Source: a virus. From it: 64,000 nt of DNA. Under the pieces are notes generated by a model. The model did no database searches, was not told the DNA's origin, and saw nothing but the letters and a program-made list of their open reading frames with translations. Below are positions 1 to 64,000 of the stretch, piece by piece. Positions within the stretch are counted from its first letter, which is position 1, and every line of letters begins with the position of its first letter. The DNA is taken from IMG/VR virus record IMGVR_UViG_3300025108_000022, positions 1 through 64,000 of that record. One strand, written 5' to 3'. The position numbers and the translations under genes were made by a program.

Positions 1-1
1 T

Positions 2-373
2 GCCTGTCCCACCACCCGATGTCCAGTCAGCACCGTCGGGTTTCTCGGCATTCATAGCATCAAGGACGACAGCGGTTGTCGTGGTGTTGAGGGCAGTGGT
101 GGTGAGGCTGTATTGATAGCCAGCACAGTGGGCTTTGGCGAGGATAGCAAACAGCATTCGGAGCAGGGTGGTTTTGCCAGATCCTGCGACGGCTTCAATC
201 ACTGATGAAATCGGGTGGCCGGAGTGAATCATGGTGATTGCATACGACATGATGTCCGTTTGTTCCGGTGATGGTGGGTTTCCGTTGTGGTCTTCACTCG
301 GCATCCAATCACGCAGTGCGGCGTTTAGGGTTGGTTTAGCGGCTGGCTTCAATGTGGCGTTCTCTTCCGACAT
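2..373 (-). CDS. Superfamily 1 (UvrD/Rep-like) helicase, N-terminal part (truncated by window edge)
   Basis: Not in the ORF track. Manual translation from ATG at 373 gives MSEENATLK...PSPEQTDI (Q motif)...VIEAVAGSGKTTLL (Walker A). The frame is open to the window start. Confidence 0.8.
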   Translation of the reverse strand, partial: MSEENATLKPAAKPTLNAALRDWMPSEDHNGNPPSPEQTDIMSYAITMIHSGHPISSVIEAVAGSGKTTLLRMLFAILAKAHCAGYQYSLTTTALNTTTTAVVLDAMNAEKPDGADWTSGGGTG

Positions 374-393
374 GGCTCATCCACCCACTCCGG

Positions 394-9414: not shown

Positions 9415-10986
9415 TTATCGTGGGCCAGCCTTGCGTGATGAAATCACATCATCAATGCGGAGAATCATGGTCGCTGTTTCAACAGCCGACTTCAATGCCT
9501 GTGCCACAACACGCTTTGGCTCATATACACCGGCTTCACCCATGTGCATGACGCCACCAGCCAATACATTGACACCGTGATGATGGTTTCCTTCGGCATG
9601 TGCCTTGCGTAGTGCCATCATTTCATCAACAGGGTCAAGACCGCCGTTTTCAGCAAGTGTTCGTGGAATGACCTCAAGTGCCTGTGAGAAAGCCTCCAAA
9701 GCCATGCGGTCACGACCACCGATAGTGAGAGCGTGATTAGCGAGATCCCTGCTTAGAGAAGCATAGATTGACCCGCCACCAGTGAGAACTTCGCCGTCTT
9801 CATAGGCAACAGCCACTACACCGACCGCATCGTCAAATGCTCGTTCAATTTCTTCAACGAATGGTGCTGTGCCGCCTCGCAGAAGCAAGGTGACAGCCGA
9901 AGAGTTCGGTGTGGAGAAGAAAGACATTGGCAATTCGCCCACTTTCTTTTCCGTGAGGCTTTCACAGGAACCAAGAGCCTCTTCAATATCCTCAAGGTTG
10001 TTGATGATGCCCGCACCCGTAGCACGGGAAAGTGCCTCCATGTCGGAACGCTTGACCTTTTCAAGCCCAAAGACGCCAGCCTTTGACAAATAATGCTTGG
10101 CGAGGTCGTCAATTCCCTTTTGACAAACGACAACGGTTGCACCGCTGTCAACAATTGCTTTGACAAGTTCACGGATGTAGCCTTCTTCTTGCTCTAAGAA
10201 AGCAGTGATTTGGCTCGGATCAGTGATTTGAATGTTGGCGTCCATTTCAGTGGACTTCACTTCAAGGGGGAAATCAATGAGAAGCACTTTTCCGTTGGAA
10301 ATGCCCGCTGGCATCCCGCTGTGCGCTCGCTCTTTATCAACGATAATGCCGCTGATGAGTTCGCTGTCATGTGCGTCGCCACCAATAGCCTTCACCACAT
10401 TGATTTGAGTTAGATCAACAGCCCCGTTTTGGGCAAGTGCCTCCACTGTATCAACGCAAATACCACCGAGGTGGTCTTTGATTGAAGCAGATGATTTGCC
10501 AGTGAGTGCTGTGGTTGCGATAGCAAGTAAGCGATCTTCGGTTTTTTCGGCATAAGCGTCCAATTTACCTGCTATGAACTGCCCTCCTTCACGGAATGCC
10601 GAACAAATCGTGGTCGGGTGGATGTTTTGGGTGATGAGTTCTTCGGACTTCTTGAGAAGTTCGCCGGAAAGAACAACCGCACTGGTTGTCCCATCGTAGC
10701 ATTCTTGCTCTTGAGTCTTTGCGACTTCAATAATCATCTTCGCCGCAGGGTGATCGATGTCCATTTCACCGAGGATGGTTGCTCCGTCGTTGGTGATGAT
10801 AACATCGCCACCTTCGTCAACGAGCATTTTGTCCATGCCTTTCGGGCCGAGAGTGCTTCGCACTGCGTCAGCGACCGCTTTTGCGGCGGCGATGTTGTTT
10901 GACTGTGCCACTCGTCCGTGGCTTCGCTCGGTTCCTTCTTTGAGAATGAAGATTGGTTGCTGTCCGTTTGGCATCATGTTGCTCAA
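9415..10986 (-). CDS. ths: Group II chaperonin (thermosome subunit)
   Basis: [53 protein letters not shown] and ILRIDDVI motifs. The start may be ATG 10977. Confidence 0.96.
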
Positions 10987-11107
10987 TCACTGCTCATCAT
11001 CAATGGCTTATCAATGTTGTGAGGCTTAACAGCCTTAACATAAAAAAGAACGGGTTCGGGATGCTTTCATCGGCAGTTATTTGAAACCCGCTTTACATAG
11101 CGCACCC

Positions 11108-12598
11108 ATGCCGAGTATGGGAGGACGACCTTCGCCGCCCAACGGCGGGCCTCGGATTGGGTTATACCCCGACGCCCAACCTCCAAACGAATACGGTGAA
11201 ATTGAAGTTCCCGAAGAAGTTCAAATGGAGGACGGTGACTCATGTTGCGACGATGCAAAGGAAAAATTGGCACAGTCTTGGAGTGATAAAAACAATTTTT
11301 CACCCAGTCAATACCAACAATTGAGAAGCCAATTAGATTCAATGGACTGTGGTGAGTTCCGAATGATGTTGGAAACGATACCGGGCACAGGGCCGGGGAC
11401 TGACATGGCTAACCATGAAAGCAACATTAACCGCGATCAGAACATTTTAGACGAATGGGACGAATGTGCCAGCCGAACAAGCATGGGGATGAAATATGCC
11501 TCGGCAGATCCGTTTGAGGCCGCATGGGACATCATGCAAAAGCAAATCGGGCGTGAGGACTTTACCTATCGGATGGCCGTTCAACCCCACTTGATGTCAA
11601 ACAAGTTCGGCAACATGCCTCCCGAATTGGGATTGAGAACCACTGGTAAATTGCCAATCAAAGAAGCCATCCGGCACCTTGAGAACTCTCAAAGCATTGA
11701 GGACTTCGCACGCACGAAGGGTTGGGAAAGTGCCGAAGATGTTGGATTGAAATTGGAGGACTTTGACGATGAAGATCAGTTCTATGAAGCCCAAGCCGAA
11801 ATGGGCGTTGGCTATGACCCACTAGATCACTTGGCGGGCGAATATCAGTATTTCCGCCCTTATCACGCTAAAGACATAGCAAGAAGACCGGATGGAGGCA
11901 TTACAGATGCAGAAATCCTGCGTGTCAATATGGAGGGGATGGGGCACCCCAACGAGTATAGAGAAGCATTCCCAGCGGTGGCAAGGGACACTATGCTTGA
12001 AGGACTTGACTCAAGGCTTGAGGCAGGTGCGACAAAAGCACCAGTGTCCACTGGCTCAATAAGTGCGATGGGACAAGGCCCGATGATCGATGTCAACCCT
12101 GCGTTTGCAGGAATGGGGCTGGGATATTCAACCCTCGCATCCCTCTTAGAAAACACTGGGAGGCTTCAAGAAAATTACATGAGTGCTGGGGGTCTTGCTA
12201 CATTACAAGGTCTTGGTCGCAAATTGGATGAGGCGGGGATTGGGCACAACATGAGTATATCACCTATGGCCCAAAGGCCCGTGATGAATGCCCAGCAACA
12301 ATTGAACAATTGGCAAGAAAGCAACGCTCGCTATCCCCATCAAGGAACCGCTGAAATGTCAATAGACGACGGAACGCAATTGACACATCAAGGGACACCG
12401 GACAAATTAGGCTACATTACACATTCAATCAATCAGCAATTGGACAATGAACGGCCCTCAACGATTCAAGAATTGAAAGCCATGCTTGAAGCGTCAAAGC
12501 GGCGACGGGGAATCATGGGGGGTATGCCGCCGTCAATGAACAGGTTCCCTCCATTCTCGGCACCTTCGTGGCAAGAACGCATATCGTGGGGTGAATGA
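11108..12598 (+). CDS. Cargo protein 10: Cys-containing N-domain, internal tag and C-terminal GNAT-like domain
   Basis: Internal DPFEAAWDIMQK at ~11507. IDVNPAFAGMGLGYSTL resembles motif A. Confidence 0.6.
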   Translation: MPSMGGRPSPPNGGPRIGLYPDAQPPNEYGEIEVPEEVQMEDGDSCCDDAKEKLAQSWSDKNNFSPSQYQQLRSQLDSMDCGEFRMMLETIPGTGPGTDMANHESNINRDQNILDEWDECASRTSMGMKYASADPFEAAWDIMQKQIGREDFTYRMAVQPHLMSNKFGNMPPELGLRTTGKLPIKEAIRHLENSQSIEDFARTKGWESAEDVGLKLEDFDDEDQFYEAQAEMGVGYDPLDHLAGEYQYFRPYHAKDIARRPDGGITDAEILRVNMEGMGHPNEYREAFPAVARDTMLEGLDSRLEAGATKAPVSTGSISAMGQGPMIDVNPAFAGMGLGYSTLASLLENTGRLQENYMSAGGLATLQGLGRKLDEAGIGHNMSISPMAQRPVMNAQQQLNNWQESNARYPHQGTAEMSIDDGTQLTHQGTPDKLGYITHSINQQLDNERPSTIQELKAMLEASKRRRGIMGGMPPSMNRFPPFSAPSWQERISWGE

Positions 12599-13075
12599 AT
12601 GAGCGCAATTGATGTGGGTTTCAGTCTGTTGAAAAACGACGATTTAGACGACATACCCGCTGAAAACAAAGGCGGGGATTGTTATTACAATTCATTCAAT
12701 TACATGTGCGCCAATCCCAATCACACACTTGTTCATGCCCAAGTGACCCCACTCATGGGGCCGCTGGCTGGTCGCCCTTACGGGCACGCATTCACCACTT
12801 TCATGGGTGAAGACGGCAGGAAGATGGTTCACGACCCCAGTGCCGATGGAGGCAAAGGAATGACAATACCTGCCGATGTCTATTATGGGATAGGGCAAAT
12901 CGGTGCCCCAAACATGATTGAATACAGCCATGAAGAAATGTTGCGCCAAATCCAAGACACCATGCACGCAGGGCCGTGGGATCCAATGACTGAACAATGG
13001 ATGCACAGTTCCGACGAAGACCGTCAAAAAAAGCGTGAGATGGATGGCGAATTGCTTGACGATGGTGAGGAATGA
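12599..13075 (+). CDS. Tagged cargo protein 11, transglutaminase/papain-like Cys-His-Asp protein
   Basis: MSAIDVGFSLLK. GDCYYNS...GHAF...VHDPS gives the triad in the expected order. Confidence 0.6.
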   Translation: MSAIDVGFSLLKNDDLDDIPAENKGGDCYYNSFNYMCANPNHTLVHAQVTPLMGPLAGRPYGHAFTTFMGEDGRKMVHDPSADGGKGMTIPADVYYGIGQIGAPNMIEYSHEEMLRQIQDTMHAGPWDPMTEQWMHSSDEDRQKKREMDGELLDDGEE

Positions 13076-14163
13076 TGGTTGAGCCTTTTGACATCGCAGG
13101 TTTGAAAGCCAATCCCGACTGGATGCGAGGTAAAGCAATACCCGGTTATGTCAAACACCCCGGAAACAAAAACAAACCTCACTACAACACTCTTGGTCGG
13201 TATGCCGCCCAACAAGCAGGAACCACAGGTATTCAAGACCCTGCAAGCGGGCCGGGTGGCTTCATTCAAGGTATTTTGCCCGAAGGGACGAGCCAAATGA
13301 ACGAATGGGATGTCGGCCTCCATAACTTGACACAACAAGTGAAGCAGGGTGGGTTCACTGTCCCATTTGACGAAGGGCCGATGGATAAACAGCGTTGGAT
13401 GGACGACATACGAGGAACCACCATATCGCAAATCAATTTGGGGAACTTGCCAAATCAAGGTTCACTGAACAACACTCTCCATCGTTTGCGACAAGGCTTG
13501 GACTGGAATGACATGACTCCCGAAGAAAAAGTGGCTTTTGCGAGGATTTACTACAAAAACAAGAAAACTGGTCGGCAAGGAGGCATAAGAGCCGGAACTG
13601 GCTACAACAACAACACTGCTGGTTCACTCCGTCCTTTCAATGTGGGACAGGTGGACGACCTATCACATTACGCCCCTTTGTTTGCTGACACTGAATTGAG
13701 GCAAGGTGATGCCACAGAAGCCTTACGAGAATGGGATGTGGACACCGACAAATTGTTGACTTCGGATCCGCCCTATGAAGGAGAACCTTCAACCTATTCG
13801 GGGAACTTTGCACTACAAGGCTATTTGCGAGAATTACAAGAACGCTTAGAAGAAGGACAGCCAATGATTGCCTTTGACAGTGCCGAAGTCGCTCCATTGT
13901 ATGCCGACATCGGACTTGAACCGCAAATTATGAATCGGCCCGACAACACAGCACCAACAGGGAAACACCGAGGAATAAAACCGGAAATGGTTGCTTTTGG
14001 GAACATTGAGGGCTTAGAACCTCTTGAACTCTTGAGTCGTTTCGGTCATAACAAATATGCACCCGATTCAAAGCAACAGTCCGAATTATTGGACTTTGAA
14101 CTCTCCGAACCCCAAAATGCCTTTGAACATGGGTGGGCTGTGCTGAAACAGGAGGAACACTGA
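13072..14163 (+). CDS. Dam-like (D12-class) amino-DNA methyltransferase homolog with a C-terminal tag copy
   Basis: KHPGNK (motif X-like), DPASGPGG (motif I-like) and SDPPY at 13765 followed by Y..NF. C-terminal NAFEHGWAVLK. Confidence 0.7.
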   Translation: MMVEPFDIAGLKANPDWMRGKAIPGYVKHPGNKNKPHYNTLGRYAAQQAGTTGIQDPASGPGGFIQGILPEGTSQMNEWDVGLHNLTQQVKQGGFTVPFDEGPMDKQRWMDDIRGTTISQINLGNLPNQGSLNNTLHRLRQGLDWNDMTPEEKVAFARIYYKNKKTGRQGGIRAGTGYNNNTAGSLRPFNVGQVDDLSHYAPLFADTELRQGDATEALREWDVDTDKLLTSDPPYEGEPSTYSGNFALQGYLRELQERLEEGQPMIAFDSAEVAPLYADIGLEPQIMNRPDNTAPTGKHRGIKPEMVAFGNIEGLEPLELLSRFGHNKYAPDSKQQSELLDFELSEPQNAFEHGWAVLKQEEH

Positions 14164-49830: not shown

Positions 49831-49872
49831 CGAGGACAAGGTATATTAACAACAATGAGAAGGGTGAGAACA

Positions 49873-50569: not shown

Positions 50570-50592
50570 CCCTTGATGATGTCCGTTCATTT

Positions 50593-50898: not shown

Positions 50899-50900
50899 AT

Positions 50901-52469
50901 ATGGGAGCAGTAAAGAAACTCGATCTGGAGTTCGCTGATGGTGTGTCCACCCTTGAAGCATACAGGGACGCACTGGCTATTCTCCCCGATAAAACCCGTG
51001 TTCTTTTGAAGGTCTTTGGGCCTTTAATGTCCACCTATTTGAAGGTGGATTTAGCACTTCAAAGCCTCAACAAAACCTTCGGGGATTCGTCAAAACCAAT
51101 TGAAGAACTTGGCGACACTATGGAGGAAAGTGGCGACAAAGTGGAAAAAAGTGGAGGTGCTATGGGCAAGGCGGTGAGCGTTCTCAACGCCCCTTTTGTA
51201 GCACTTGGTGGCACTCTCAAACTGGTCGGAAGCATGTTCAAAAGCCTGTTGTTGGGACTATTGCCCCTCATGGGCGTCGTCATGGCCGTCACGGGTATTG
51301 TCATGTTATTTGTCGCCGCCTTTGACGCTGGCGGAGGGAAACTGAAACAATGGCTGGCTGATTTGCCGATTATCGGGGGGATGATGGCTACAATTGAAGC
51401 GGCGATCCAAGCGGTCAAGGACATTTGGGAAACACTGAAAGCCAACCTCACTTTGCCCGAAGGGACTGACAGCGAATCATTCTTCACAGGCATTATTGAC
51501 GGGATCACGATGGTTTATGAGATATTTCAAGGCTACTGGATGATGATTATTGAACTCATCAGTGCATACATCACTGCACTGGCCGAGTCGGGGCTTCTCC
51601 AAGCCATTATTGATGCAATCGTTTCCGTTTATGATTCTTTCATGGAGGCTTGGGACATGATCATGGGTGCCTTTGGCGACGGGGGAGTGCAGAACTTCTT
51701 TGATATGGTCGTCGGCTTGTTTCAATATACAATGGACTTTTTGGTGAGTTCGGGCATATTTGCATTCATTGGTGACATTATTCAATTGGTTGGTGAAATC
51801 ATCGGCACAGTGGTGTTCCTTGCGGCGGTCATTATTCGCATCGTCGTTGAAATTGTCAAGTTCGTCTATCCGTATGTCGCACCATACTACAAAATGCTGA
51901 TTGCCGCATTCGGCATGATCCTCACCGTCGTCATGGGTGTTGTTCGCACTATTATGAAACTCGTCAGTGCCTTCGTCGCACTGCTTCGTGGCGACTTTGA
52001 CAAAGTGGGTGAAATCCTATACTCAATCAAGGACATTTGGGTTGATGTGTTGGACGGAGTGATAGGCTTTTTCAAAGGTTTCATCAACAACCTCATTGAT
52101 TTCGCCAGCCCTGCTTTGAAACTCATAAACAAGGTCATAGGTGCCTTTAACGCCATCAATCCATTCGGTGAAATACCGGAAATTGACATTGGTGGCCTCA
52201 AACTCGCAAAGGGTGGCGTAGTCAGTGGGCCAAAGTCCGGCTATCCAGCCGAACTACACGGCACAGAAGCCGTAGTCCCACTGCCCGACGGGCGCACTAT
52301 CCCAGTCACCATGCAAGGTGGGGGCGGAATGGGTGGAGAAACGACAATCAACATCAATGTCAGCGGCGCAAGCGGCGACCCTCGCAAGATAGCACGAATG
52401 GTGGGTGATGAAGTCGGGCGTTTGTTCAAAAGCCGTTCACGCACTGGTGGTTTCAGCAGGGGGGTATGA
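50901..52469 (+). CDS. Tape measure protein
   Basis: Amphipathic and hydrophobic helical repeats with periodic W/F. C-terminal LAKGGVVSGP...ELHGTEAVVPL and TININVSG. Confidence 0.85.
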   Translation: MGAVKKLDLEFADGVSTLEAYRDALAILPDKTRVLLKVFGPLMSTYLKVDLALQSLNKTFGDSSKPIEELGDTMEESGDKVEKSGGAMGKAVSVLNAPFVALGGTLKLVGSMFKSLLLGLLPLMGVVMAVTGIVMLFVAAFDAGGGKLKQWLADLPIIGGMMATIEAAIQAVKDIWETLKANLTLPEGTDSESFFTGIIDGITMVYEIFQGYWMMIIELISAYITALAESGLLQAIIDAIVSVYDSFMEAWDMIMGAFGDGGVQNFFDMVVGLFQYTMDFLVSSGIFAFIGDIIQLVGEIIGTVVFLAAVIIRIVVEIVKFVYPYVAPYYKMLIAAFGMILTVVMGVVRTIMKLVSAFVALLRGDFDKVGEILYSIKDIWVDVLDGVIGFFKGFINNLIDFASPALKLINKVIGAFNAINPFGEIPEIDIGGLKLAKGGVVSGPKSGYPAELHGTEAVVPLPDGRTIPVTMQGGGGMGGETTININVSGASGDPRKIARMVGDEVGRLFKSRSRTGGFSRGV

Positions 52470-52472
52470 CGG

Positions 52473-53723
52473 GTGCCGAAAATACAATTGATTCGCAAAG
52501 ACGGGCAAGTCATTGAACTTGATGCAACCGATATAGGCATGTCAGTGACCCGTGGTGTTTCTGTTTGGCCGATACCGATTATCGCCACCCGTGCCGCATT
52601 AGATCTCAACGCAAACATGCTCGCTATCACCATTAACGGTGTGATCACTGACGACACTTCAAGCACAGGCGATAACGGAGCATCCTGCGTTTTGGATTTG
52701 TCAAGACCCACTGCGGTCTGTCTTTCTTGGCATGAGCAATTGAGAAACGAATACGGTGCTTATGTTCTCAAAGATGTGTTGCATGGAAAGGAAATCATGT
52801 TTAGCACAGCGGGGCAAATGAGCGCAGGGCTTGGAGAAAAAACTGTTTTGCGTTTTGACAAAGCGAGCAATTTTTCAAGCAGTGTCGCAACCGAGTCCGT
52901 CGTTCGTGTTGACTTGTCGGGAACAGTGAACCACACGGGCCATGTGGCTACGGCAATAAAAACAGCCTTAGATGGAGGCACTGTCAAAGTCGGAGGTGCA
53001 AACACCGCAATAAGTTCACTCTTAACCACCACTCTTTCGCTCGGTGAGCAATCCGAATTAAGCGCAAATAAACAAGGGATAGGTGCGGCTGTCAACGAAA
53101 AGGTCACGATAGCAAACCTAACGACAGGAAAGGCAGGGAACTTGCCTCTTGTCAAGCGTGGTGCCATGCCCTTCTCAACAACGGCTGACTGGTCGCACTC
53201 ATTCTTCACTTCGGCATTTACAGGTGGTGTGGACGGTTCACGCAAAAGCAAGGGGGACAAGGTGCAAGACCTCCTTAACATGACAATGAATGCAAATGTC
53301 GGTGGTTTTATGGTTTCACCTCAAGCACTGACTGGTGATCTTGTTGAAATGCCGGACTCACTATCGTCTTTTGACACATCAAAATTGCTTGGAATCAGTG
53401 AATCTTCGTCTATTCGCAAATACATTGTCGGTCTTCGCATACCGTATGAATCAATGGTGACGGCAGGGGTCAGTGGTGAGGTATTGCGCCAATTCATCAT
53501 TCCTTCGGGGCCGGGAACAGATTACCCGTCCGAAGAAAATACAGAACCATTCGATCCGACCAACACAGAAGGCGGAGAAATCACAAGACCCAACCCGTTT
53601 TTCCGACAAAAGGTTGCTATTCCGGGTGTAGTTCAAACATTTCAACCTGCATATCAAGCAGGTGATTCGGTTTGGACTTATTCGCTCGGTTTTGCCGCAG
53701 TGGAACAATTGATTGGGGTTTGA
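52473..53723 (+). CDS. Putative distal tail/hub protein
   Basis: Directly follows the tape measure. Beta-rich termini around an insertion. Confidence 0.55.
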   Translation: MPKIQLIRKDGQVIELDATDIGMSVTRGVSVWPIPIIATRAALDLNANMLAITINGVITDDTSSTGDNGASCVLDLSRPTAVCLSWHEQLRNEYGAYVLKDVLHGKEIMFSTAGQMSAGLGEKTVLRFDKASNFSSSVATESVVRVDLSGTVNHTGHVATAIKTALDGGTVKVGGANTAISSLLTTTLSLGEQSELSANKQGIGAAVNEKVTIANLTTGKAGNLPLVKRGAMPFSTTADWSHSFFTSAFTGGVDGSRKSKGDKVQDLLNMTMNANVGGFMVSPQALTGDLVEMPDSLSSFDTSKLLGISESSSIRKYIVGLRIPYESMVTAGVSGEVLRQFIIPSGPGTDYPSEENTEPFDPTNTEGGEITRPNPFFRQKVAIPGVVQTFQPAYQAGDSVWTYSLGFAAVEQLIGV

Positions 53724-53728: not shown

Positions 53729-56620
53729 ATGCCGATCAAAAAACTGCATTCACAGGCCATTCGTTTTAATGGTTTCACTGACGGTATTGTTGTCCCTACG
53801 GGTGCATTCCGAGAATCGGGTGTGGATTTGTATGCCGCATCGCACACTGAAAAAACAGGATCAACCAACAAAGTTCCCTCATATAATAGCGACGACCCCA
53901 AAATAGGGAGGCGACACATACCCAACGAAGGGAACGGTCTAAACAACATAATTGGCCCATTCACCATAGAAGCCTTTGTCATACCCGATAAAGGAGGCAT
54001 AATCGTTTCAAAGGAAAATTGCTACACATTGGAGATAGGGAGTCCACTTGCGCCTAAATCCGCTGTGTTCACCGTGTTCACCCGAAGCACTTCGGGTGCT
54101 AAAGACGCTGTGAATGTAGCCACTTCTTTCAATTTTCCCACTTTGAATAACCCATACAGCATATTATTGACGGATGAAGGTTTTGAAGAAGGTGTTTATC
54201 AATTCAACCCAATTGAAGATGGTGAACAAGGGCACAAGCCCCATGATTTAGATTTGCCTTTACAGCCATTGTTGTATTTGAACGCACAGTTCACTGGAAA
54301 GGACTTGCGACTTTACATCAATGGAGATTTGGTGGCAAAGTCGGACTTTGGTGGAGAGGAAAGAACAATTCAAGCGAGTTCTTCTGATCTGTTCATAGGC
54401 GGGCGAGGGGGAGAGTTCCGAGGTGTCATTGAAAGTGTTCGGATTAGCAGGGGTGTTGTAGCACCGAAACTCCAACCATTTACTAAACAAGACAACACTA
54501 TGGGGCTATGGGATTTTGAAGATGAAGACGACACCCCCAACCTGTTTTTCGCTAACCATAAGAGTCCGGCACAGGCTGATTATAGCGGGAGAGATGGAGT
54601 CGGCCAAAGTGACGGGAAAATGTCGCACCCAATGGTGTGCGTCGGTTATGATTTCACTAATGTTGCCGTCAGCGGCAATATAACCACCCCCTTGTCATTG
54701 ACAACGGGCTACGACTACGCTACTTTCAAAATCCGTGATTTTGGGGGAACCAAGCCCAGTGCTTTGGAAATGCTCGCTTCTCATATCCTATCCATACCGA
54801 TTGACGACTTGCCTCTCCAATCATGGTGGAACAATGGGACTGGTGTGCTTGACATCGGGGCACATGTCACTAAAGCACGCTATCATGCTGATGGGTTGCC
54901 AGTGTCAAACTTAAACGCAATCGTCAATGCCAGCGGCACAGATCCGAACACAGGGGTGCCGGTATCAGCATACGACTATGAGGATTTGGCACAAGACCCC
55001 GCAGGTGGTGTCAGTCTTGACCCTATGGCGAACCCAATAGAACGAATCCGCATAATTGCTCTTGACTTCAACGCACACGCAATAGTCGTGCAAAACTCAA
55101 TGCTCAAGAACGAAGATGGAGTGGCCGATGCAAAAAGTCAAGGGTTCATTTTCGCACACCCCGATAATACGCCCATTTGGTTCACTCTCGGAAACGGGGA
55201 CTTATTGATCGATTTAGGCAACGACTTGCGCCCAGCAGGACAAATGACAAGGGCGAGGTTCACTCAAGGCCAACGATTCAAGGACAAATCGGGTTTTGGG
55301 AATGCGGCATACTTTGTCAACACCCATTCAAGGAACACAAACGAAATGAAAAACCGCCTTCAAAACATCGGTGGTTTAACACAAAACACCGACTATCCGC
55401 CAATGACGCCTTCATTGTTGCTTTGGCTTGATGCCGACGATCCGGCCACTATGTTGAGGGGCGATATGCAACCCCTCATGGCGGTGACTGACAACAGCAA
55501 TTACCCAGTGTGGTGGAAAAGTAAAGCCCCAGCGGCACCGGATTATCATTTTTATGGCGGAAGCATGGTTGGAAACGCATGGCGTTGGATTAAAAACAAC
55601 CCAAAGGTGAACAGTCGTGGTGGCCTCCAAGCCGCCGGAATAGCCGAGCAGGTCGGTGTCACTGAAATTGACCCCGGACTGGAACAAGCGGGTGAAATAA
55701 ATACAAACCTCATACCACTTACACCCACCACCACTGAAAAATCCATGTGGGTCAACGGAGAGGGTGCATTCAATCAGCCGGGGAGAGTTCCCGGTTTTGA
55801 TAGTGCGAACGGGCCAGCACCAACACCTTTCGCTGTCGTTCATAATACGGAAATTGGTGGTGTTGCGACCAACAATGGCGATTTCACATTCTATTATGTT
55901 ATTACACCGCAATATGAGTCCGGCGTCTTGCATTTGTTGAAAAATGTGGCAAACACACCCGACTTTCAATTGGACAACGGAAGTGGTGTCCCATCCATAG
56001 CGTATTCAAACATCACAGCCGCACTTCACCAAGACGGAAAGCCGACAGCAGGACAACCCTGTTTAGTCGCCATCACTGTCAACGGCACTGAAAATGGCCT
56101 TTACAAAATGTGGGCGAAAGGTTCGGGTGCTGGGGCAACCCACAGTCAAGCGTTAAGCGGAACACCAAATGCCGACCTTTCGTTTTTAGATGCCACCACT
56201 GGGACAGCGGGTTTAGAATTGTTTGGTTTCTTAACGCACACACCAGCCAGTGGCGGCGGCGGTGGCGGCGGCGGTGGCGGCGGTGGCGGGGAACCCGACC
56301 CCGAACCACCCGAAGAACCCGAAGAACCCGAACCCGGAGAGATTGGCGGAGAACCCGGATTTGGCGGAGAAGACCCCTTCAACCCCACCGAACCCGGATT
56401 TGGCGGAGAAGACCCCCCGAAAGCAGACCCCTTTGACCCCTTCAACCCCCCCGGAGGTGGCGGCGGAGGCGGCGGTGCCCCTTTTGTCCCCGAATCAAAT
56501 ACCGCCACTGCTACCGCACCGCCGGGTTTCATAGTTCACGAAGTATTGATTTATGCTGGTTATCACGGCACTTCTATGAACGATGTGCGACAGTATGTTG
56601 AAGACAAATGGGGGATCTGA
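53729..56620 (+). CDS. Tail protein with LamG/concanavalin-like domains
   Basis: FTIEAFV, LRLYINGDLV, LFIGG..GEFRGVIESVRIS, LWDFED and LLLWLDADD. Gly/Pro/Glu insert near the C-terminus. Confidence 0.75.
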   Translation: MPIKKLHSQAIRFNGFTDGIVVPTGAFRESGVDLYAASHTEKTGSTNKVPSYNSDDPKIGRRHIPNEGNGLNNIIGPFTIEAFVIPDKGGIIVSKENCYTLEIGSPLAPKSAVFTVFTRSTSGAKDAVNVATSFNFPTLNNPYSILLTDEGFEEGVYQFNPIEDGEQGHKPHDLDLPLQPLLYLNAQFTGKDLRLYINGDLVAKSDFGGEERTIQASSSDLFIGGRGGEFRGVIESVRISRGVVAPKLQPFTKQDNTMGLWDFEDEDDTPNLFFANHKSPAQADYSGRDGVGQSDGKMSHPMVCVGYDFTNVAVSGNITTPLSLTTGYDYATFKIRDFGGTKPSALEMLASHILSIPIDDLPLQSWWNNGTGVLDIGAHVTKARYHADGLPVSNLNAIVNASGTDPNTGVPVSAYDYEDLAQDPAGGVSLDPMANPIERIRIIALDFNAHAIVVQNSMLKNEDGVADAKSQGFIFAHPDNTPIWFTLGNGDLLIDLGNDLRPAGQMTRARFTQGQRFKDKSGFGNAAYFVNTHSRNTNEMKNRLQNIGGLTQNTDYPPMTPSLLLWLDADDPATMLRGDMQPLMAVTDNSNYPVWWKSKAPAAPDYHFYGGSMVGNAWRWIKNNPKVNSRGGLQAAGIAEQVGVTEIDPGLEQAGEINTNLIPLTPTTTEKSMWVNGEGAFNQPGRVPGFDSANGPAPTPFAVVHNTEIGGVATNNGDFTFYYVITPQYESGVLHLLKNVANTPDFQLDNGSGVPSIAYSNITAALHQDGKPTAGQPCLVAITVNGTENGLYKMWAKGSGAGATHSQALSGTPNADLSFLDATTGTAGLELFGFLTHTPASGGGGGGGGGGGGGEPDPEPPEEPEEPEPGEIGGEPGFGGEDPFNPTEPGFGGEDPPKADPFDPFNPPGGGGGGGGAPFVPESNTATATAPPGFIVHEVLIYAGYHGTSMNDVRQYVEDKWGI
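56249..56480 (+). repeat. Poly-Gly-flanked Pro/Glu repeat insert
   Basis: (GGC/GGT)n tracts. 27-nt direct repeat GAACCCGGATTTGGCGGAGAAGACCCC at 56351 and 56390. Confidence 0.85.
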
Positions 56621-56622
56621 AT

Positions 56623-59600
56623 ATGCCCGAAGAGGACAATTACCCCAACCCAAGTCTTGGACTGGGCGAAGAAGCCATTAACGGAATTGACAAAGAGCCA
56701 GTGAACCATTTCGCAGGGTGTTCGGGTGTCACTTCGTATAATCGTGTGAAAGGGCACTTTTTCCTTGCGAGTTTGCCTCAACCACAGGATGAAACCATAA
56801 CAAGGACTGTTCAAGGACTCGCTGATCGATTTGAAACCACTCACGAAGACCCTTCGGTGGCGTCAATTGTGTCAATGAACGCCAATGTTCAAATCACTGA
56901 AACCGTATATCAAGGTGAAGTATTGAATGTCATTGACAAAAGCAATATGGCTACATTGACTCAATCGTTAAGCCCGAACCATAAGCAATCCGCCATCGTG
57001 GTGCAAGGCGGCTACGGCTACAATAACAACCTTGCACATGCTTCATCAACAGCCGACTCCATTATCGCAATCGGCCTTGACGACATACGCCCCTTTGCGC
57101 TGAAAGGACTTGATGTTGAACACACTGCGTTATTTGACGCAACCAACCCAACCAAACCAACCAACCAAGAATATGTCCGGCATTTGACCCCGGAAAAAGA
57201 ATCAAGGGTCGCTTCAATAGAAATCCCTTTGGCGTTGCGACAACAGGGATTACCACCAAGAGTTTTGGTGCATTATAGTGCTATTGATCTGACCGGAGAA
57301 GTCGTTGCCGCATGGAAAGGAGATACGAGAGCAGGTATTACTATTCTTAATCAAACATACAATTACAAGAACGCTTTAGCAAACCTTGACAATACCCATA
57401 ACGACCTCAAAGGCATTGACGGTATGGATAAAAAAGGGTGGCTTGTCGTTGAAAAAACAGTCCCCGACTCCAACATGGTTTATCCCGATACTTCGCTTCC
57501 TAATGCCGCACCCACATTCCGCACACTCGCCAATTGGCTGAAAGAGCCGTTCACAGCGGCTCAAAAAGCAAGCGGGGCGCAAACGGCATGGGATTCGCTG
57601 ACAGTGACGGCACCGGGCGGTATTGTTTCGGTGCCAGCGGGAGGGGCAAATCGTTCACTGCAAGATCACTCAATGAGAGTGAATCCAACCGGAGGGGAAA
57701 CACATTCACCTTTCATCAATCTTGAAAATTGCGCTCACACTTTGGTTCAAAACGGTGCCTTATCACCATCACCCGGCATTTCAAAAAGTATTGACAATGG
57801 CTACGGCATACCCGTTGCACAGCACGGAACACGGAGTCCTATGTCAAAGAGTGAAGGTGTGTATCACACCTTTTCAGTTTTGGCTGGCGGGGGAGCCGAC
57901 AAAACCAATGCCACTTCAATTCAAGCACTTGGTATCACTTCATCGGCGGCGACATTTGAGCAGTATGAAATCATTGACAATAAAACCGAAAATGACAGGC
58001 AATTGCTTCTTGTCCAGCCGAAAAACAAGAGCAGGACAGGTGTGTTGGGTGATATTGGATTGACGAATGATATTGAAAAACATACTTGTAAAATTGAACT
58101 CGTTTCTATGCGTGGGCGTGTTGAAGAAATCGCCCCTAACAGCGACAGTGAAGGCGGCGGAGGCGTTGTTATTCGTGGTCGCTCACAAATGATGGATGTT
58201 TCAGATCGTGTCGCTGAAAGGGATTTTAGCCTTGCTGAAGGATTTGCTTTGAAGGAGATTGGCGACCTCGGCTCTCCTACGGTCAGCCTCACTATGGGCG
58301 GATTGGGGCAGGGTGGCATTGACATCGCCCCGACCCGAACTGAACACTCTTTCTTGCCAGTATGGAAAGACAAGGTGATTGGCTCAAACAACCCGTCTGT
58401 GCGGAATGATCGACAAACCTCCACCTATTATGCTTCAACCCGTGCGCTGGTTGAATTGCCACTATTCCCATCAATGTTTTATGATGTTGAGCAACGGCTT
58501 GCTGATAGTGAAAGTAAGCGTAGTCCCCTGCCCTCAACCAAGTCCACTGAATTGATAATTGACGCTACAATGACAGCCAAAAATCGTCCCCAAATGAAGG
58601 ACTACGAGAACCGAAACGCCATTGATTGGGGCATGAAGAATGTCGTTTCGTCGTTAAAGGTCAATGATGCTGATTTGGTTTCGGGGAAAACATGGATCCG
58701 AGCCATGCGTGAGAGTTCAGCGACATTCACCCGCCCCGACGACAATGCCGATGACAAAGCGTGCATTTTGGGCGGGAGTGGAGGCAACAGCGCATTCTTA
58801 TATTCGGGTTCATACATTTCAGTGGATAGTGTGTTGCCGTTCATATTGAATGAAGAAGGGGGATTCACTGGGACTTCAATAAACAACGCTTCGTCCACAT
58901 ACAACACTGCAACACAAGGGCAAGCCTTCTCCAATATGGGGTTTGTAGTCACCATTGGTGAGGGTATTATCAGTGAAAGGGGCATACGATTTCATATTCA
59001 CAGGGCGCAATTGATAAACGGTGAACACCGTCTGTATTTTGACGCATTTCACCACTTTGACGATGATGGGCTGACTTATACTGAACTCAAAAACATAATC
59101 ACGACTGGCTTGCCAGTGACTATGGGTTGCTGGCTCACTGACGCCCCCAATGCCTACGCTGGGACGGGCACTGCTGGAAACAACGCCACTTTCGCCGTCC
59201 TCAATGCCACAGCAAGCACCGACAACGCTACAATGGCGCAGAACTTCATTGAGCCGCTGGAAAAGACATTTGCACTTGGGCGAACCACCACAAACGGTGT
59301 GACCGTGCGTAGTGGAATACAAATTGACCCCAGCGATCCAACCGGCGCAACCATTCTTATTCACGACGGCCCGACGATGGAGGGCTTTACCTTTGATCCC
59401 GGAAATTATCTGTATGGTGCTGGGAGTATGCCTCTTGTCCCGCCAGTGGAATGTCGTTCCGGCCATTTGTCATTGAAAGGCAAGCGCAACGACAACACAT
59501 TGGACTGGGTTCGTCCTATGCGCCTTAATTTGGGCGACATAGGGGGTGCTGGTTCAGTCAGCAAGTTTGAAGAGGCTGTTGACGAACTCATCCGAAGAAT

Positions 59601-61710
59601 CAATCAAGCCGGACATCCCAAAGCCAAGAATAGCAACGGAGGGAGTGCCTTTAATCCACCTTCACTGTTCACCACAGACGCCGGAATATACACCGTCACT
59701 TCAACCGATACAGGTTCGCACATGGGCTATGTGAGAGCCTTTTTGGGACAACAGGTTGAGAGCCGAACTGGCGAAAAGGGTCTTTCAGTGGTTATCCACT
59801 GCACTGTTCCCGGTGCCACAGGTCGTGATTTTGCAGTATGGATCAACAACAATACCCCATATCCATATCGGCCTATCCAAGCCGTCGGTCATGGTGGGCT
59901 TGTAGCGTCCAATAGCCTTTCTTACCAAGCAAGTTCCTTTGCCGCACCACTGCCTTTGGGTATGGATGGAGAAACGCATGTCCCAATAACCACATTTCAA
60001 GGAGGTGTTCATGGAGCCGTGACTGACGCTGACGGGAACCTCCGTCAATATAGCGGAATAGGGCGAGAGTTTGCATTCAACACAGTCGCCCTGCCTCAAT
60101 TTGAAGATGGCGACCTTATACCCGATTATGACCCCGAAGCCCAACCGACTCTCATGGTTCAGCGTAAAGCACTGGACATAATATACAGAATCAACCGGAA
60201 AATAAGCCGACAGAACAAGGGATTGATTTTGGTTGACGACAAACACTTAGGTGAGTTTGATGCAGTGGTTTCCGGCCCCGACAACATTTCAAACAGCAAA
60301 GTTTCGGGGGTTGGATCTTGTATGGGGCTGTTCAATTGCCAACCACTGGATAAGACGCTCGGCAAAAAATGGAAAGAATTGTTTTATGACAGCAGTGGCA
60401 AATTGAAAGAGGTGCCAATCAAATTGCTGAACCCGTTGATTGACGCAAACGCCATTCTATTCTTCGGTGGAGGGCACACTGGCGTCACCTTTGATGTCAG
60501 CGACGGCACAGACAACGATTACAGCGACTTTTACACTCACCATTATGCAAAGGGGCCGACTGGGTATAGTGGTTTTCAAAACCTACAAGAAGTGCAAACA
60601 TCGGCGGCTGTGCTTGATTTCACCAAATTGAAGAACGCTGATACGGTGAACGAGAACACATATCGTGGACTCCATCACAGCAAATCCATTGTTGAAACGG
60701 GTGTCGTGCCAGCGGAGGGATTATTGGATAAAGAAACAGATGGTTGCCTTTGGTATGTCCGAATGAACGAACCTGCGTTGTATGCTGATCATGGCGCAAG
60801 CGGCAAGGAATTGGCTCTTGACGCAATACACGGTGTGAAATTAAAGGCGTTTGGCGACTTTGCGAATCAAGCACTTTTGGCGGGGCCAGCAACAGGAGAT
60901 CCCGAATCAAAGGGCATTGACTTTCACGGGCACAGTGATGCAGGACTCATTTCACTTCATAAAATTGAAACATTAACCAACCCCGGTGGCCTCCCCACAG
61001 TCGCCTCGCTTGTGCCGCTGAAAAGCAACATGTTCGGTGCTTTTGGCTCATACGATGCCGCAAACGACGGGGCATATTCATTCTCATTCTTTTTCAATTC
61101 CGGCGACGCTACGGGGGGTGCTTGGAGTGGTGTTCACTATGGCAACGGCCCTGTGGTTCACGGTATTGACAGCACGACACGGGGATTCGGTGTTTCAGTC
61201 AATTCAAAACAGGGGAACTCAAATAGCGTTATGGACTTCTCAATAACGACATTCGTTCATACCGACATTGGGAACGGTAGCGTCACATATCAAATCACCA
61301 GCGATGTTCAAGCAAACCAACCAAAAGATGCTTGGTATCATGTAGTGGTGTCAAGGGCGTCGGGTGCCTCACAGCCACTAATTTACATTAACGGAATTGC
61401 AGTGAATGGGACAGGGGCGTCATTCATTAACCAAGTCGCTCTTTCATCGGCACCACACCTTCCTTTGGGCGTCGGTGTGGGATCTGCTTTGGGTGGTGGA
61501 TATTACGGAAAAGCAAACAATATGTTGACTATTGGTGCCGGTTTGTTGCCGTGGACACCACCTACAAATTATCACCACGGAAAGAACGACCCAGCCTCCG
61601 CAAATGCGCCTGTTTATTTCAACGGTGCCCTAAGTGAAATCGCTATGTGGAATAAGGCACTCACACCCACCGAAGTCGCAACACTCTATAATGCGAGAAC
61701 CGTGTGGTGA
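56623..61710 (+). CDS. Very large tail/adhesin protein with C-terminal LamG domain
   Basis: ~1695 aa. WYHVVV, IYINGIAV and YFNGALSEIAMWNKALTPTEVATLY. Confidence 0.75.
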   Translation: MPEEDNYPNPSLGLGEEAINGIDKEPVNHFAGCSGVTSYNRVKGHFFLASLPQPQDETITRTVQGLADRFETTHEDPSVASIVSMNANVQITETVYQGEVLNVIDKSNMATLTQSLSPNHKQSAIVVQGGYGYNNNLAHASSTADSIIAIGLDDIRPFALKGLDVEHTALFDATNPTKPTNQEYVRHLTPEKESRVASIEIPLALRQQGLPPRVLVHYSAIDLTGEVVAAWKGDTRAGITILNQTYNYKNALANLDNTHNDLKGIDGMDKKGWLVVEKTVPDSNMVYPDTSLPNAAPTFRTLANWLKEPFTAAQKASGAQTAWDSLTVTAPGGIVSVPAGGANRSLQDHSMRVNPTGGETHSPFINLENCAHTLVQNGALSPSPGISKSIDNGYGIPVAQHGTRSPMSKSEGVYHTFSVLAGGGADKTNATSIQALGITSSAATFEQYEIIDNKTENDRQLLLVQPKNKSRTGVLGDIGLTNDIEKHTCKIELVSMRGRVEEIAPNSDSEGGGGVVIRGRSQMMDVSDRVAERDFSLAEGFALKEIGDLGSPTVSLTMGGLGQGGIDIAPTRTEHSFLPVWKDKVIGSNNPSVRNDRQTSTYYASTRALVELPLFPSMFYDVEQRLADSESKRSPLPSTKSTELIIDATMTAKNRPQMKDYENRNAIDWGMKNVVSSLKVNDADLVSGKTWIRAMRESSATFTRPDDNADDKACILGGSGGNSAFLYSGSYISVDSVLPFILNEEGGFTGTSINNASSTYNTATQGQAFSNMGFVVTIGEGIISERGIRFHIHRAQLINGEHRLYFDAFHHFDDDGLTYTELKNIITTGLPVTMGCWLTDAPNAYAGTGTAGNNATFAVLNATASTDNATMAQNFIEPLEKTFALGRTTTNGVTVRSGIQIDPSDPTGATILIHDGPTMEGFTFDPGNYLYGAGSMPLVPPVECRSGHLSLKGKRNDNTLDWVRPMRLNLGDIGGAGSVSKFEEAVDELIRRINQAGHPKAKNSNGGSAFNPPSLFTTDAGIYTVTSTDTGSHMGYVRAFLGQQVESRTGEKGLSVVIHCTVPGATGRDFAVWINNNTPYPYRPIQAVGHGGLVASNSLSYQASSFAAPLPLGMDGETHVPITTFQGGVHGAVTDADGNLRQYSGIGREFAFNTVALPQFEDGDLIPDYDPEAQPTLMVQRKALDIIYRINRKISRQNKGLILVDDKHLGEFDAVVSGPDNISNSKVSGVGSCMGLFNCQPLDKTLGKKWKELFYDSSGKLKEVPIKLLNPLIDANAILFFGGGHTGVTFDVSDGTDNDYSDFYTHHYAKGPTGYSGFQNLQEVQTSAAVLDFTKLKNADTVNENTYRGLHHSKSIVETGVVPAEGLLDKETDGCLWYVRMNEPALYADHGASGKELALDAIHGVKLKAFGDFANQALLAGPATGDPESKGIDFHGHSDAGLISLHKIETLTNPGGLPTVASLVPLKSNMFGAFGSYDAANDGAYSFSFFFNSGDATGGAWSGVHYGNGPVVHGIDSTTRGFGVSVNSKQGNSNSVMDFSITTFVHTDIGNGSVTYQITSDVQANQPKDAWYHVVVSRASGASQPLIYINGIAVNGTGASFINQVALSSAPHLPLGVGVGSALGGGYYGKANNMLTIGAGLLPWTPPTNYHHGKNDPASANAPVYFNGALSEIAMWNKALTPTEVATLYNARTVW

Positions 61711-61714
61711 TAAC

Positions 61715-64000
61715 ATGGCGGAGGTGCTGTCCTATGCGAAGCGGGAATATCCCGCCGCCTTGACTCCTATTGGTTCCGACAATGGAACCCCTGCGAGTGG
61801 GTATTTCAGCCTTCACTTTACCTATCCCGATACGGCCTATGAAGACCCTACATCCATGACTTTCGCAAAGGATGGAGTCAACCAATTGGGAATCAATTAC
61901 ATGATCAGAACCCCGCTGGCTGGTGATGCAACCAACGCCGCATCAATTGACAGTCCGGGTGAGGATGCACGCAACGGAACAAACACTGTTGTCATTGACC
62001 TCAAACGAGCCGCCGAAGCACACGCCGCATCAATCGCCGCAGGGGCAGTTATGCCCGCCAAAACCTTTGATTTGGGCACAGAAGAAGCGGCACGACTCAT
62101 CGCCGCTACAATCAATTCAACACGCAACCGTCAAATCGGCGCACACTCTAATTCTCGTTATTTGCGGGCACGATATGTGAAAATGAGTGGGAGCAAGCAA
62201 TACGGTGGTTGGTATTCAACAACACTTGGCCGTGGTCGGCTTTTGGGCTTTGAGAACGGACAGCGAATTGGGAGTGGAACGACATATTTGAAGCCAAACG
62301 GCAATTTTGCGACGAACCTGCATGAAATAAACACAAATGTTGGGGTCGGTGGCTATCTCTTGCCCAATGAACACCTATACACCACCGACAACCGATATAT
62401 TGGACAGATCCTTGAAATCAGTGGCACTCGCATTCGGTTCTATGAACCAATCAAGGTGAACTTGACGGCTACCGATAGATTGAGAGGCGGCTGGCTACGC
62501 CTGTTGCAGTTTGGAACCACGACTAAGAGAAACACAGTAGCCGAGCAGTTTAACCATAACATCATGCCGACCGACATGCCAAAGCGTGGCACTATTGTCG
62601 GCAATCCAAACACGACACTCCAAGACAGTGCCAGTGCCCCTGTCAGCAATTACACCTTAACCTATGACGGCTGGGAAATTGTCAATGATAACGAAGTTCA
62701 ATTCAACATCACCAAAGTGGAGTCAACGAGTGCGGTAAAGGACATCACCGACTCCATTGTCACAGACCCCACCCAACCTACATGGTTCGTGAACAACGAC
62801 ACAGAAGAACAACACACGGTTGTTGTTTCGTGGGAAATAGATGCCCCGACTGGTGGCGGCTATTGGGGCACGGCCAACGGTGGCCCTGTCGTTCAAGGAC
62901 TCGGTGCCTCCCTCCCTGTTTGGTATTTGACGGCCAAACCAATGGACGGCGGGAACATGGGCTTGCCAGCCGCAAACGCTGATTCACGGGGTGCCAGCCC
63001 TTCAACACATACGACAGGACATGGGTATAGCCGGTTCTCCATTGAAGGACTTAATTCATGCTCACTGCCCGACATGCCGCCACCCGACAAGCCGTTTAAC
63101 GGCCCAGTGGTCGCAGGTTCAACCGAAGCCGATCCGTTTCAGTGGACTGGACTAAACGACGCTTTGAATGCACACCAAGAGGACAACCTGTTAATCACTA
63201 AAAACGAGTTCGGAACTCAAATGGACGACGGAGGGCCGTTTCAAACCAATTGTATGGTTTCAACAAACGCTACACTCACCGGAGGAACCACGGTTAAAGC
63301 CCTCACACCAGCGACTAAGATTTCAGCCCATTTCAACGACGGTGATGTCATTTATGCCCCCGACGGGACTCCTTTAGGAACAATTGCCGAAGGGGGCGTC
63401 GCCGAAACCACCAGCACAGAACTGACTGTCATTGGCCCTAAAAATGTTGACAGTGGGGTGCGTGTTGATCATGGTTTTGGGCACACATTGAACGGCGATC
63501 CACCGCTTGGTGGAAACCGTTGCTACAACGCCTTCTTTTACTATGCGTGGGCACATGCAATCAATTCGTTAAGCACTTTGCGAACAGGGGGAGCCGCACC
63601 GAACTCCTATTATGAACCCGGAGATGAAATCACCGACAAATCCGACAATTTGATTGGCACAGTCCCTATTTGTCGGACTGTCAAGCGTCAAGCACCGGGG
63701 GCGGGCGGAATTGTTGGTTCTCTTGTGCATATTGCCGACGGAAACGATTTGTTTTCGGACGCAAACAGGGACATAAAATCCTTCACCGTTGACACCAACG
63801 ACCCGAACTTGATTTATCATGTTGGTGAAAAATTGTATGCCGAGGATATTTATTACAAAACCACGGTGACGACGCAACCCACACCAGCGGGCGAACTGTT
63901 GCTTGCTATTGCCGGAGGTGATCCGACATCAGCCGGATATGACGGAACACGAATTAAACCACACGATAGGATTTACCTAAAAACCGTCGGGAATAGCATG
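61715..64000 (+). CDS. Large tail-associated protein (truncated by window end)
   Basis: Not in the track because it has no stop. ATG 61715 follows GGTGA (MAEVLSYAKREYPAA...). The frame reads open at both ends checked. Confidence 0.75.
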   Translation, partial: MAEVLSYAKREYPAALTPIGSDNGTPASGYFSLHFTYPDTAYEDPTSMTFAKDGVNQLGINYMIRTPLAGDATNAASIDSPGEDARNGTNTVVIDLKRAAEAHAASIAAGAVMPAKTFDLGTEEAARLIAATINSTRNRQIGAHSNSRYLRARYVKMSGSKQYGGWYSTTLGRGRLLGFENGQRIGSGTTYLKPNGNFATNLHEINTNVGVGGYLLPNEHLYTTDNRYIGQILEISGTRIRFYEPIKVNLTATDRLRGGWLRLLQFGTTTKRNTVAEQFNHNIMPTDMPKRGTIVGNPNTTLQDSASAPVSNYTLTYDGWEIVNDNEVQFNITKVESTSAVKDITDSIVTDPTQPTWFVNNDTEEQHTVVVSWEIDAPTGGGYWGTANGGPVVQGLGASLPVWYLTAKPMDGGNMGLPAANADSRGASPSTHTTGHGYSRFSIEGLNSCSLPDMPPPDKPFNGPVVAGSTEADPFQWTGLNDALNAHQEDNLLITKNEFGTQMDDGGPFQTNCMVSTNATLTGGTTVKALTPATKISAHFNDGDVIYAPDGTPLGTIAEGGVAETTSTELTVIGPKNVDSGVRVDHGFGHTLNGDPPLGGNRCYNAFFYYAWAHAINSLSTLRTGGAAPNSYYEPGDEITDKSDNLIGTVPICRTVKRQAPGAGGIVGSLVHIADGNDLFSDANRDIKSFTVDTNDPNLIYHVGEKLYAEDIYYKTTVTTQPTPAGELLLAIAGGDPTSAGYDGTRIKPHDRIYLKTVGNSM

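Follow-up and report, generated by a model that had tools for sequence, protein, structure and literature searches.

Words purged from a magrovirus of marine archaea survive where they overlap GATC, consistent with shielding by a Dam-like methylase

Restriction-site avoidance, in the form of missing short palindromes, was reportedly treated by Sharp in 1986 and by Rocha et al. in 2001, and McClelland, Nelson, and Raschke are said to have covered in 1994 how dam methylation at an overlapping GATC blocks restriction enzymes. According to vendor tables, the sites of TaqI, ClaI, BspHI, BspEI, NruI, XbaI, Hpy188I, and BclI are blocked in vitro by overlapping dam methylation, whereas PvuI (CGATCG) cuts dam-methylated DNA and is blocked by methylation on the cytosine of that GATC. 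Phages and archaeal viruses show lineage-specific, synonymous depletion of type II words (Rusinov et al. 2018, PMC6286503). Dam methylases are encoded by T4 and P1 and also by archaeal tailed viruses, M.phiCh1-I being an example; carriage of such an enzyme accompanies the presence of GATC, and the motif is missing from viruses that do not have it (Liu et al. 2021, PMC8651126). In haloarchaeal tailed viruses, the presence of GATC tracks that of a viral Dam gene (PMC8651126). In this study, we analyzed 64,000 bases of viral DNA (49.6% G+C; IMG/VR record IMGVR_UViG_3300025108_000022, positions 1 to 64,000), hereafter called the window. Judging by its gene content, it belongs to a ~100-kb magrovirus, one of the tailed viruses of Poseidoniales, which are marine archaea. 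Each of the three elements of the mechanism that we propose for it is already known, namely, the avoidance of sites, methylation by a viral Dam, and blocking at overlaps. The novelty lies in the evolutionary footprint of their combination, in how far the purge extends and turns over among magroviruses, and in the recognition of DamL, a candidate GATC methylase encoded in the window.

The depletion in the window is of the same lineage-specific and synonymous kind as that described for other viruses (PMC6286503) but differs from it in three respects. It is far larger, with ~60 words at or near zero and 51 of the 64 six-base palindromes missing. Viruses sharing 93% identity in the terminase large subunit (TerL) differ in the words that they have purged. 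Finally, the depletion is conditional, in that copies overlapping GATC stand at expected frequency. Our literature search found no earlier description of such overlap-conditional avoidance, which is not proof of absence.

To quantify the purge, we took expected word counts from a second-order Markov model. AGCT (0 versus 182 expected), ACGT (0 versus 156), and GTAC (0 versus 67) were missing altogether, as were CCWGG and GAATTC; these are the five words that the original prediction, made by eye, had reported as absent, and each was expected in 25 to 180 copies. TCGA (28 versus 243), CGCG (4 versus 178), and CTAG (2 versus 60) were nearly gone, and GATC itself was near expectation (177 versus 201). 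When only copies that do not touch GATC were counted, the purge extended to ~60 words, a wider set than had first been noticed. These were six 4-mers, twelve 5-mer pairs (GGWCC, GCWGC, four YCWGR pairs, CTCAG, GAGAC, CAGAG, CAACT, GTAAC, and GTAGA), and about forty 6-mers, all at zero (a few at one) with 10 to 240 copies expected. Many of the purged nonpalindromic words (such as GTCTC, CTCAG, CAGAG, GCAATG, CACGAG, CCGCTC, and CTGGAG) are known type IIS or type III sites. Five random sequences generated with the same second-order model and equal composition contained no purged word. Three of the 13 six-base palindromes that remain in the window have GATC inside, and TCATGA, TCCGGA, TCTAGA, and ATCGAT persist only on a GATC. 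The only common ones are CAATTG (73 copies) and ACATGT (11 copies); no further six-base palindrome that lacks GATC is frequent. CAATTG is in fact overrepresented (42 expected); the RAATTY words are all missing, so AATT persists mainly as CAATTG.

The purge is achieved through synonymous codon choice. The alanine codon GCT was used at none of 394 positions following an NNA codon and at 356 of 1,146 positions elsewhere (31% after NNB), and the arginine codon CGT was never used after NNA (0 of 270). Aspartate preceding valine was always GAT (40 of 40), glutamate preceding phenylalanine was always GAG (28 of 28), and proline preceding GAN was CCC or CCG in 144 of 145 cases, which agrees with the codon routing described in the original prediction; likewise, tyrosine following NNG was TAT in 77 of 77 cases. 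The depleted words are restriction-type, lineage specific, and removed by synonymous change, as is characteristic of restriction avoidance. Contigs from other metagenomes that are 96 to 100% identical to the window in TerL carry the same purge, and it is therefore not an assembly artifact.

The surviving copies of five purged words all sit on GATC. This was true of all 28 TCGA, 4 CGCG, 2 CTAG, 3 TCATGA, and 21 YCWGR copies (58 of 58), as the original prediction had claimed from a set of examples whose positions all proved correct. At 841 to 850 (TCGATCATGA), TCGA and TCATGA both survive on one shared GATC, and at 11432 to 11441 (CGCGATCAGA), a single GATC is overlapped by CGCG through 1 bp and by TCAGA through 2 bp. 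CGCG is also found on GATC at 2210 to 2216 (GATCGCG, 1-bp overlap) and, as CGCGATC, at 23042 to 23048 and 34700 to 34706. CTAG occurs at 11822 to 11828 (CTAGATC, 1-bp overlap) and, together with TCTAGA, on the GATC at 35248 to 35255 (GATCTAGA). Under a first-order model, the expected share of copies that overlap GATC is 9% for TCGA and 2% for CGCG or CTAG, and the chance that all copies do so is 1e-29 for TCGA, 2.5e-7 for CGCG, and 5e-4 for CTAG. If GATC carried no modification, this pattern would have to come from chance, an assembly artifact, or a flank preference shared by the enzymes concerned. We give this practically no weight, given the probabilities for the single words (1e-29 to 5e-4), the random sequences without any purged word, the recurrence of the same rule across independent metagenomes and lineages, and the more than ten unrelated words that would all need one flank preference. 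By far the best reading, as originally proposed, is that GATC is modified and thereby protects the sites that overlap it.

The survival of purged words was then resolved by how many base pairs they share with GATC. For 2-bp overlaps, 57 copies were observed in the window where 46 to 49 were expected, which amounts to complete relief from the purge. Over the window and its relatives together, the relieved words are TCGA, ATCGAT, TCATGA, TCCGGA, TCGCGA, TCTAGA, TCWGA/YCWGR, and TGATCA. Purged words lying 0, 1, or 2 bp from a GATC without a shared base were not found, with ~9 expected at each distance. Among 1-bp overlaps, CGCGATC (4 versus 4.1 to 4.7 expected) and CTAGATC (2 versus 1.1 to 1.5) were relieved, whereas the remaining words, pooled, were not (3 versus 15 to 18). 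CGATCG, which has the whole GATC inside, was still purged (0 versus 13).

We next considered related viruses. A TerL search gave 53 related IMG/VR contigs (labeled G or L with a number) with 75 to 100% identity and lengths of up to 101 kb; those of 86 to 101 kb have completeness values of 81 to 95%. Each lineage has a distinct purge list. AGCT is missing or nearly so in all lineages (a single copy each in G014 and L045), and the counts of GTAC, ACGT, CTAG, CGCG, TCGA, CCGG, and GATC differ across lineages; for example, G006, at 93% TerL identity, keeps 208 TCGA versus 28 in the window. From the purge one can apparently read a restriction pressure that varies among closely related viruses, in keeping with the suggestion that the pattern would report restriction specificities of the uncultured host. 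Relief at 2- to 3-bp overlaps recurs in G006, G007, G011, and G012. On GATC, TCGA occurs 18 times versus 16.5 expected in G011, and ATCGAT occurs 8 times versus 5.3 in G006 and 4 times versus 3.7 in G007; in G012, TCCGGA and TCGCGA are relieved. No relief was seen in G009, G005, G010, G014, G015, or G016. For 1-bp overlaps, we pooled counts from twelve genomes. CTAG (9 versus 15) and CGCG (6 versus 18) were partly relieved, and their survivors occupy 11 distinct genomic places each, giving 22 independent sites. This contrasts with the complete lack of relief for CCWGG (0 versus 21), CACTG (0 versus 19), CTCAG (0 versus 14), CCGG (0 versus 14), and CAGAG (0 versus 11). As for words with GATC inside, CGATCG is also purged in nearly every lineage (G006, G007, G009, G010, G011, G014, G015, and G016), TGATCA is purged in G007 alone (0 versus 37), and AGATCT is purged in G010 and G012.

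The candidate writer of the GATC mark is DamL, a 363-amino-acid protein encoded on the plus strand at 13072 to 14163, which, as judged from its structural model, is a divergent D12-class (Dam-fold) DNA methyltransferase. Sequence searches with DamL gave no match in Pfam (at an E value of 0.01 or better), PHROGs, or the PDB (by phmmer and with a family profile), and the protein was therefore placed only by structure and transitive homology. Its AlphaFold2 model (mean predicted local distance difference test score, 81) aligned best with EcoDam (VIA Z, 19.3; root mean square deviation, 3.0 Å; 234 of 251 EcoDam residues), followed by Mcbe1, T4Dam, and DpnM (Z, 16.7 to 17.5, with T4Dam and DpnM at 16.7), and generic methylases began at a Z of 12.4. 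The best Foldseek matches were likewise EcoDam, DpnM, and T4Dam (E = 7e-8). The model thus appears to hold both an S-adenosylmethionine (SAM)-dependent methylase fold and a Dam-type DNA-binding domain. Motif IV, DPPY, lies at residues 232 to 235 within LLTSDPPY (SDPPY, 231 to 235); D232, P234, and Y235 do not vary among 16 DamL homologues, and conservation at P233 is 90% or higher. In the model, a conserved P57-x-x-G60-P-G-G-F follows a strand at 53 to 56, and N77-E78 falls at a strand at 74 to 78. These may correspond to the glycine-rich SAM-binding motif I after strand 1 and the acidic residue after strand 2, whose expected places they occupy. Transitive support came from homologues in G012, G014, and G018 that exceed the curated PF02086 cutoff; the DamL family profile matched a PF02086-positive open reading frame (ORF) at an E value of 3e-18, and the window protein did so by BLASTP at 5e-7. 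No other methylase-like ORF was found in the window among ORFs of at least 150 amino acids and eight plus-strand ORFs of 116 to 143 amino acids. The original prediction had proposed a search for methylase genes, which yielded DamL within the window itself and no C5-methylase in the lineages with relief.

In contrast to the Dam enzymes described from archaeal viruses, DamL is too divergent for Pfam, PHROG, and PDB sequence searches, and its slot in the genome is occupied in other lineages by a canonical D12 gene or by a C5-methylase; the shielding of other, overlapping words is not described in that earlier work (PMC8651126). The slot lies between the thermosome gene and a gp88-like gene, and its content varies among lineages. 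It holds DamL in the window, a DamL allele that is 36% identical in G006 (93% identical in TerL), a C5-methylase instead in the GATC-free G001, and a canonical D12 gene plus a C5-methylase in G005. This methylase swap site spans 11081 to 16205 of the window, 48917 to 53056 of G001, 28720 to 31493 of G005, and 16498 to 22929 of G006. In G013, the DamL homologue (47530 to 48600) has an in-frame TGA; the lineage of G010 and G013 has GATC at 0.4 of expectation and no TCGA relief.

One lineage, represented by two half-genome contigs, G001 and G002 (106 kb combined), provides a natural control. No D12 or DamL match was found in these contigs, and they contain no GATC at all, where ~290 would be expected; in G001, the syntenic slot, flanked by gp88 and the thermosome, is occupied by a C5-methylase. 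All contigs that cover the slot with a D12 or DamL gene keep GATC, at 0.4 to 0.9 of expectation. The DamL lineages versus G001 and G002 match the either/or relation reported for haloarchaeal viruses (PMC8651126).

These data also bear on whether the mark might be made by the host. Under this alternative, the host's own Dam methylase would mark viral GATC, and DamL would have another specificity or role. SMRT (single-molecule real-time) sequencing has revealed methylated GATC in most of the marine archaeal metagenome-assembled genomes (MAGs) studied, as well as AGCT, CGCG, and GTAC marks in Poseidoniia/Euryarchaeota MAGs (PMC8919816). We sampled 151 genomes from the order of a Thalassarchaeum MAG and found a D12 gene above cutoff in 23 of them, and DamL homologues do occur in viral lineages without relief. 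However, 23 of 151 is only 15% of the sampled hosts, and the sole viral lineage without a D12 gene has purged GATC fully, as expected if it is the viral gene that makes GATC safe. In addition, the nearest structures to DamL include the GATC enzymes EcoDam, T4Dam, and DpnM, matched over both domains. We therefore regard marking by the host as improbable. In the same host sample, RE_MjaI (CTAG) was found in one genome, and the DpnII family and RE_TaqI were found in none of the 151, with the proviso that these profiles cover restriction enzymes poorly and that MAGs lose accessory genes. The sole RE_MjaI match is an MjaI-family (CTAG) endonuclease homologue with one internal TGA in a Thalassarchaeum MAG (G022:C20:9130-9600).

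Taken together, we think it probable that the virus escapes restriction in two ways, through the purge of ~60 words and through a mark on GATC, most likely N6-methyladenine (m6A) made by DamL, that shields overlapping sites. The virus strips almost all copies of ~60 restriction-type words by synonymous codon choice, and DamL would place a small protective mark, most likely m6A, on viral GATC. In sites that share two or three base pairs with GATC, the methyl group would then fall inside the site and would block the enzymes for TCGA, ATCGAT, TCATGA, TCCGGA, TCTAGA, TCWGA/YCWGR, and TGATCA, so that selection against these copies would be lifted and they would return to expected frequency. Words for which no overlap with GATC is possible, or for which the enzyme would tolerate the mark (CGATCG, CCWGG, CTCAG, and CAGAG), would stay purged. 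The relieved words, and the unrelieved CGATCG, match the blocked and not-blocked lists for dam overlaps in vendor tables, although what we see here is an evolutionary footprint in an uncultured virus and not a bench result. The purge of CGATCG despite its GATC fits m6A, which PvuI tolerates, and argues against a bulky or a cytosine mark. Given the relief pattern and a Dam fold predicted for DamL, the most economical reading is m6A, and DamL probably writes it at GATC, as suggested by the fold, the counts, and the overlap table. The original prediction had instead suggested that the mark may lie on the C, the G, or the G-p-A backbone. The Dam fold of DamL, the match to dam overlaps of 2 to 3 bp, and the purged CGATCG speak against this for most of the pattern, and it keeps its force only for CGCG and CTAG.

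Several observations weigh against m6A by DamL. In CGCGATC and CTAGATC, the methyl group of m6A falls outside CGCG and CTAG, yet these words are relieved at 22 independent sites, and no 4-bp cutter is known to be inhibited by methylation beyond its own recognition sequence. DamL homologues are present without relief in G009 (ATCGAT, 0 versus 7.0), G010 (TCGA, 1 versus 13.6), and G014, where either the enzymes differ or GATC is unmarked. The window leaves about one-third of the viral genome uncovered, and relatives that are 91% identical in TerL hold further methylases in that third (one PF01555 and one canonical D12), so another enzyme could be the writer. No methylase was found in the 6.4 kb past the window end, which in contigs that are 85 to 94% identical is a single giant ORF. 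Finally, the D12 methylases of the host order noted above count here as well.

The relief of CGCG and CTAG, which share a single G:C pair with GATC and for which vendor lists give no overlap with the methylated base, thus needs separate treatment. We consider it possible, with some hesitation, that this relief reports something not previously described, either a second mark on C or G or archaeal enzymes that are blocked by adjacent m6A. In the latter case, the CGCG and CTAG enzymes might sense the methyl group on the neighboring base pair, beside the outer cytosine that is probably protected by their own methylases; the weaker pooled relief of CGCG and CTAG fits such adjacent-base-pair sensing. 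In the former case, the second mark may be N4-methylcytosine (m4C) from the PF01555 methylases that relatives carry beyond the region of the window.

The idea of the original prediction, in which the shield itself lies on GATC's G:C pair (GAT-m4C made by a beta-class N6_N4 methylase of these viruses would be one form, alone or with m6A), strikes us as unlikely. It is the only reading that places the mark within CGCG and CTAG, which are relieved in the window and at the 22 pooled sites. CGCG and CTAG methylases usually act on the first C, as with m4CTAG in Haloferax, and a mark on this pair would hit just that base. The same pair is position 2 of YCWGR, as for a Dcm-type mark, but position 1 of CCWGG, which is unrelieved (0 versus 21). 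PF01555 genes are present in all long-contig lineages with relief (G007, G008, G011, and G012), and the near-complete G009 and G005 have neither relief nor PF01555. On the other hand, CGATCG is purged in relief lineages (0 versus 13, 1 versus 13, 0 versus 9, and 0 versus 7), and PvuI-type enzymes are sensitive to methylation of exactly this cytosine but insensitive to m6A. Relief at 1-bp overlaps, when pooled, is incomplete (CGCG, 6 versus 18; CTAG, 9 versus 15), a C5-methylase was not found in G006, G007, G008, or G011, and a PF01555 gene was found neither in the window nor, judging by G006, in the 33 kb upstream. PF01555 genes also occur in G010 and G016, which lack relief, and in the GATC-free G002; we tried their presence as a predictor of relief and dropped it, as these three contigs break the rule.

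A bulky or nonmethyl modification of GATC, such as 7-deazaguanine, phosphorothioate, or a hypermodified adenine, appears very improbable. A bulky group would account for the protection of the neighboring base pair at CGCGATC and CTAGATC, and G006 has a gene with a PAPS-reductase domain (DndC-like fold) beside its DNA polymerase. That gene is missing, however, from the other relief lineages, and words that abut GATC get no relief. The original prediction had also suggested a search for dpdA or dnd genes; TGT/DpdA was found in none of 18 related contigs, four of which are >90% complete, and DndE was not found in the relatives in a search without a positive control. A phosphorothioate at GpA would sit away from the bond that is cleaved in TCGA or CTAG. 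CGATCG (window), TGATCA (G007), and AGATCT (G010) are purged with the whole GATC inside, which suggests that, at least for TGATCA in G007 and AGATCT in G010, enzymes still cut through the mark; it would then be a small group, as a methyl is. As a separate observation, the PAPS-reductase-domain gene of G006, the closest long relative, lies at G006:58102-59061 (L073:18102-19061), with the family B DNA polymerase directly ahead of it and a PD-(D/E)XK nuclease behind it, and was not found in the 17 other related contigs.

The pattern shows that sequence alone can indicate the words that an uncultured virus avoids and the motifs that it protects chemically, and it suggests what is done by a protein family listed as hypothetical in standard annotation. 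Poseidoniales are among the most abundant archaea of the surface ocean and have no culture or genetic system; the differing purge lists of near-identical magroviruses point to a fast turnover of their restriction specificities. The conditional-relief rule makes predictions for long-read methylomes that can be tested and offers a simple search for shield motifs in other viral genomes. If the proposed reading of CGCG and CTAG holds, viral genomes would record dozens of restriction specificities and methyl sensitivities of uncultured Poseidoniales.

The virus was assigned on the basis of its gene content. The window carries the features of the order Magrovirales, group A-like: a Caudoviricetes morphogenesis module, a thermosome, a LamG-like giant, a carboxyltransferase-type gene, and a seawater origin, and the same gene features have been described for group A magroviruses of Poseidoniales (PMC11706807). 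The morphogenesis genes are all on the plus strand and encode TerL (29836 to 31281), which was used to gather the 53 related loci, the portal protein (32677 to 34485), the prohead protease (40512 to 41840), and the major capsid protein (41855 to 43021). The group II chaperonin (thermosome), an archaeal-virus marker, is encoded on the minus strand at 9415 to 10986 (Cpn60_TCP1, 542 bits) and adjoins the variable methylase slot. A look-up of this thermosome among genomes for a host gave distant matches of 37 to 50%. The HMGL-like (pyruvate carboxyltransferase-type) gene lies at 1191 to 2273 on the plus strand, as in group A magroviruses (PMC11706807). The family B DNA polymerase is outside the window and was seen in G006. 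The sequence of the window is present in marine metagenomes of many studies, at least nine in number.

Giant LamG-like proteins are encoded on the plus strand at 56608 to 64000, and the second of them continues past the window end. This last ORF (61634 to 64000) extends to at least 2,926 amino acids in a contig that is 94% identical (L130:4041-12818), as a LamG-like magrovirus giant. Just upstream of the terminase gene, a 750-amino-acid, disordered-looking protein rich in lysine, glutamate, and alanine is encoded on the plus strand at 27587 to 29839. It contains QMLMTDPPY(I/V)G-QE in two near-identical copies ~50 residues apart; the TDPPY within it is the string of methylase motif IV, in a protein with no methylase fold or family match.

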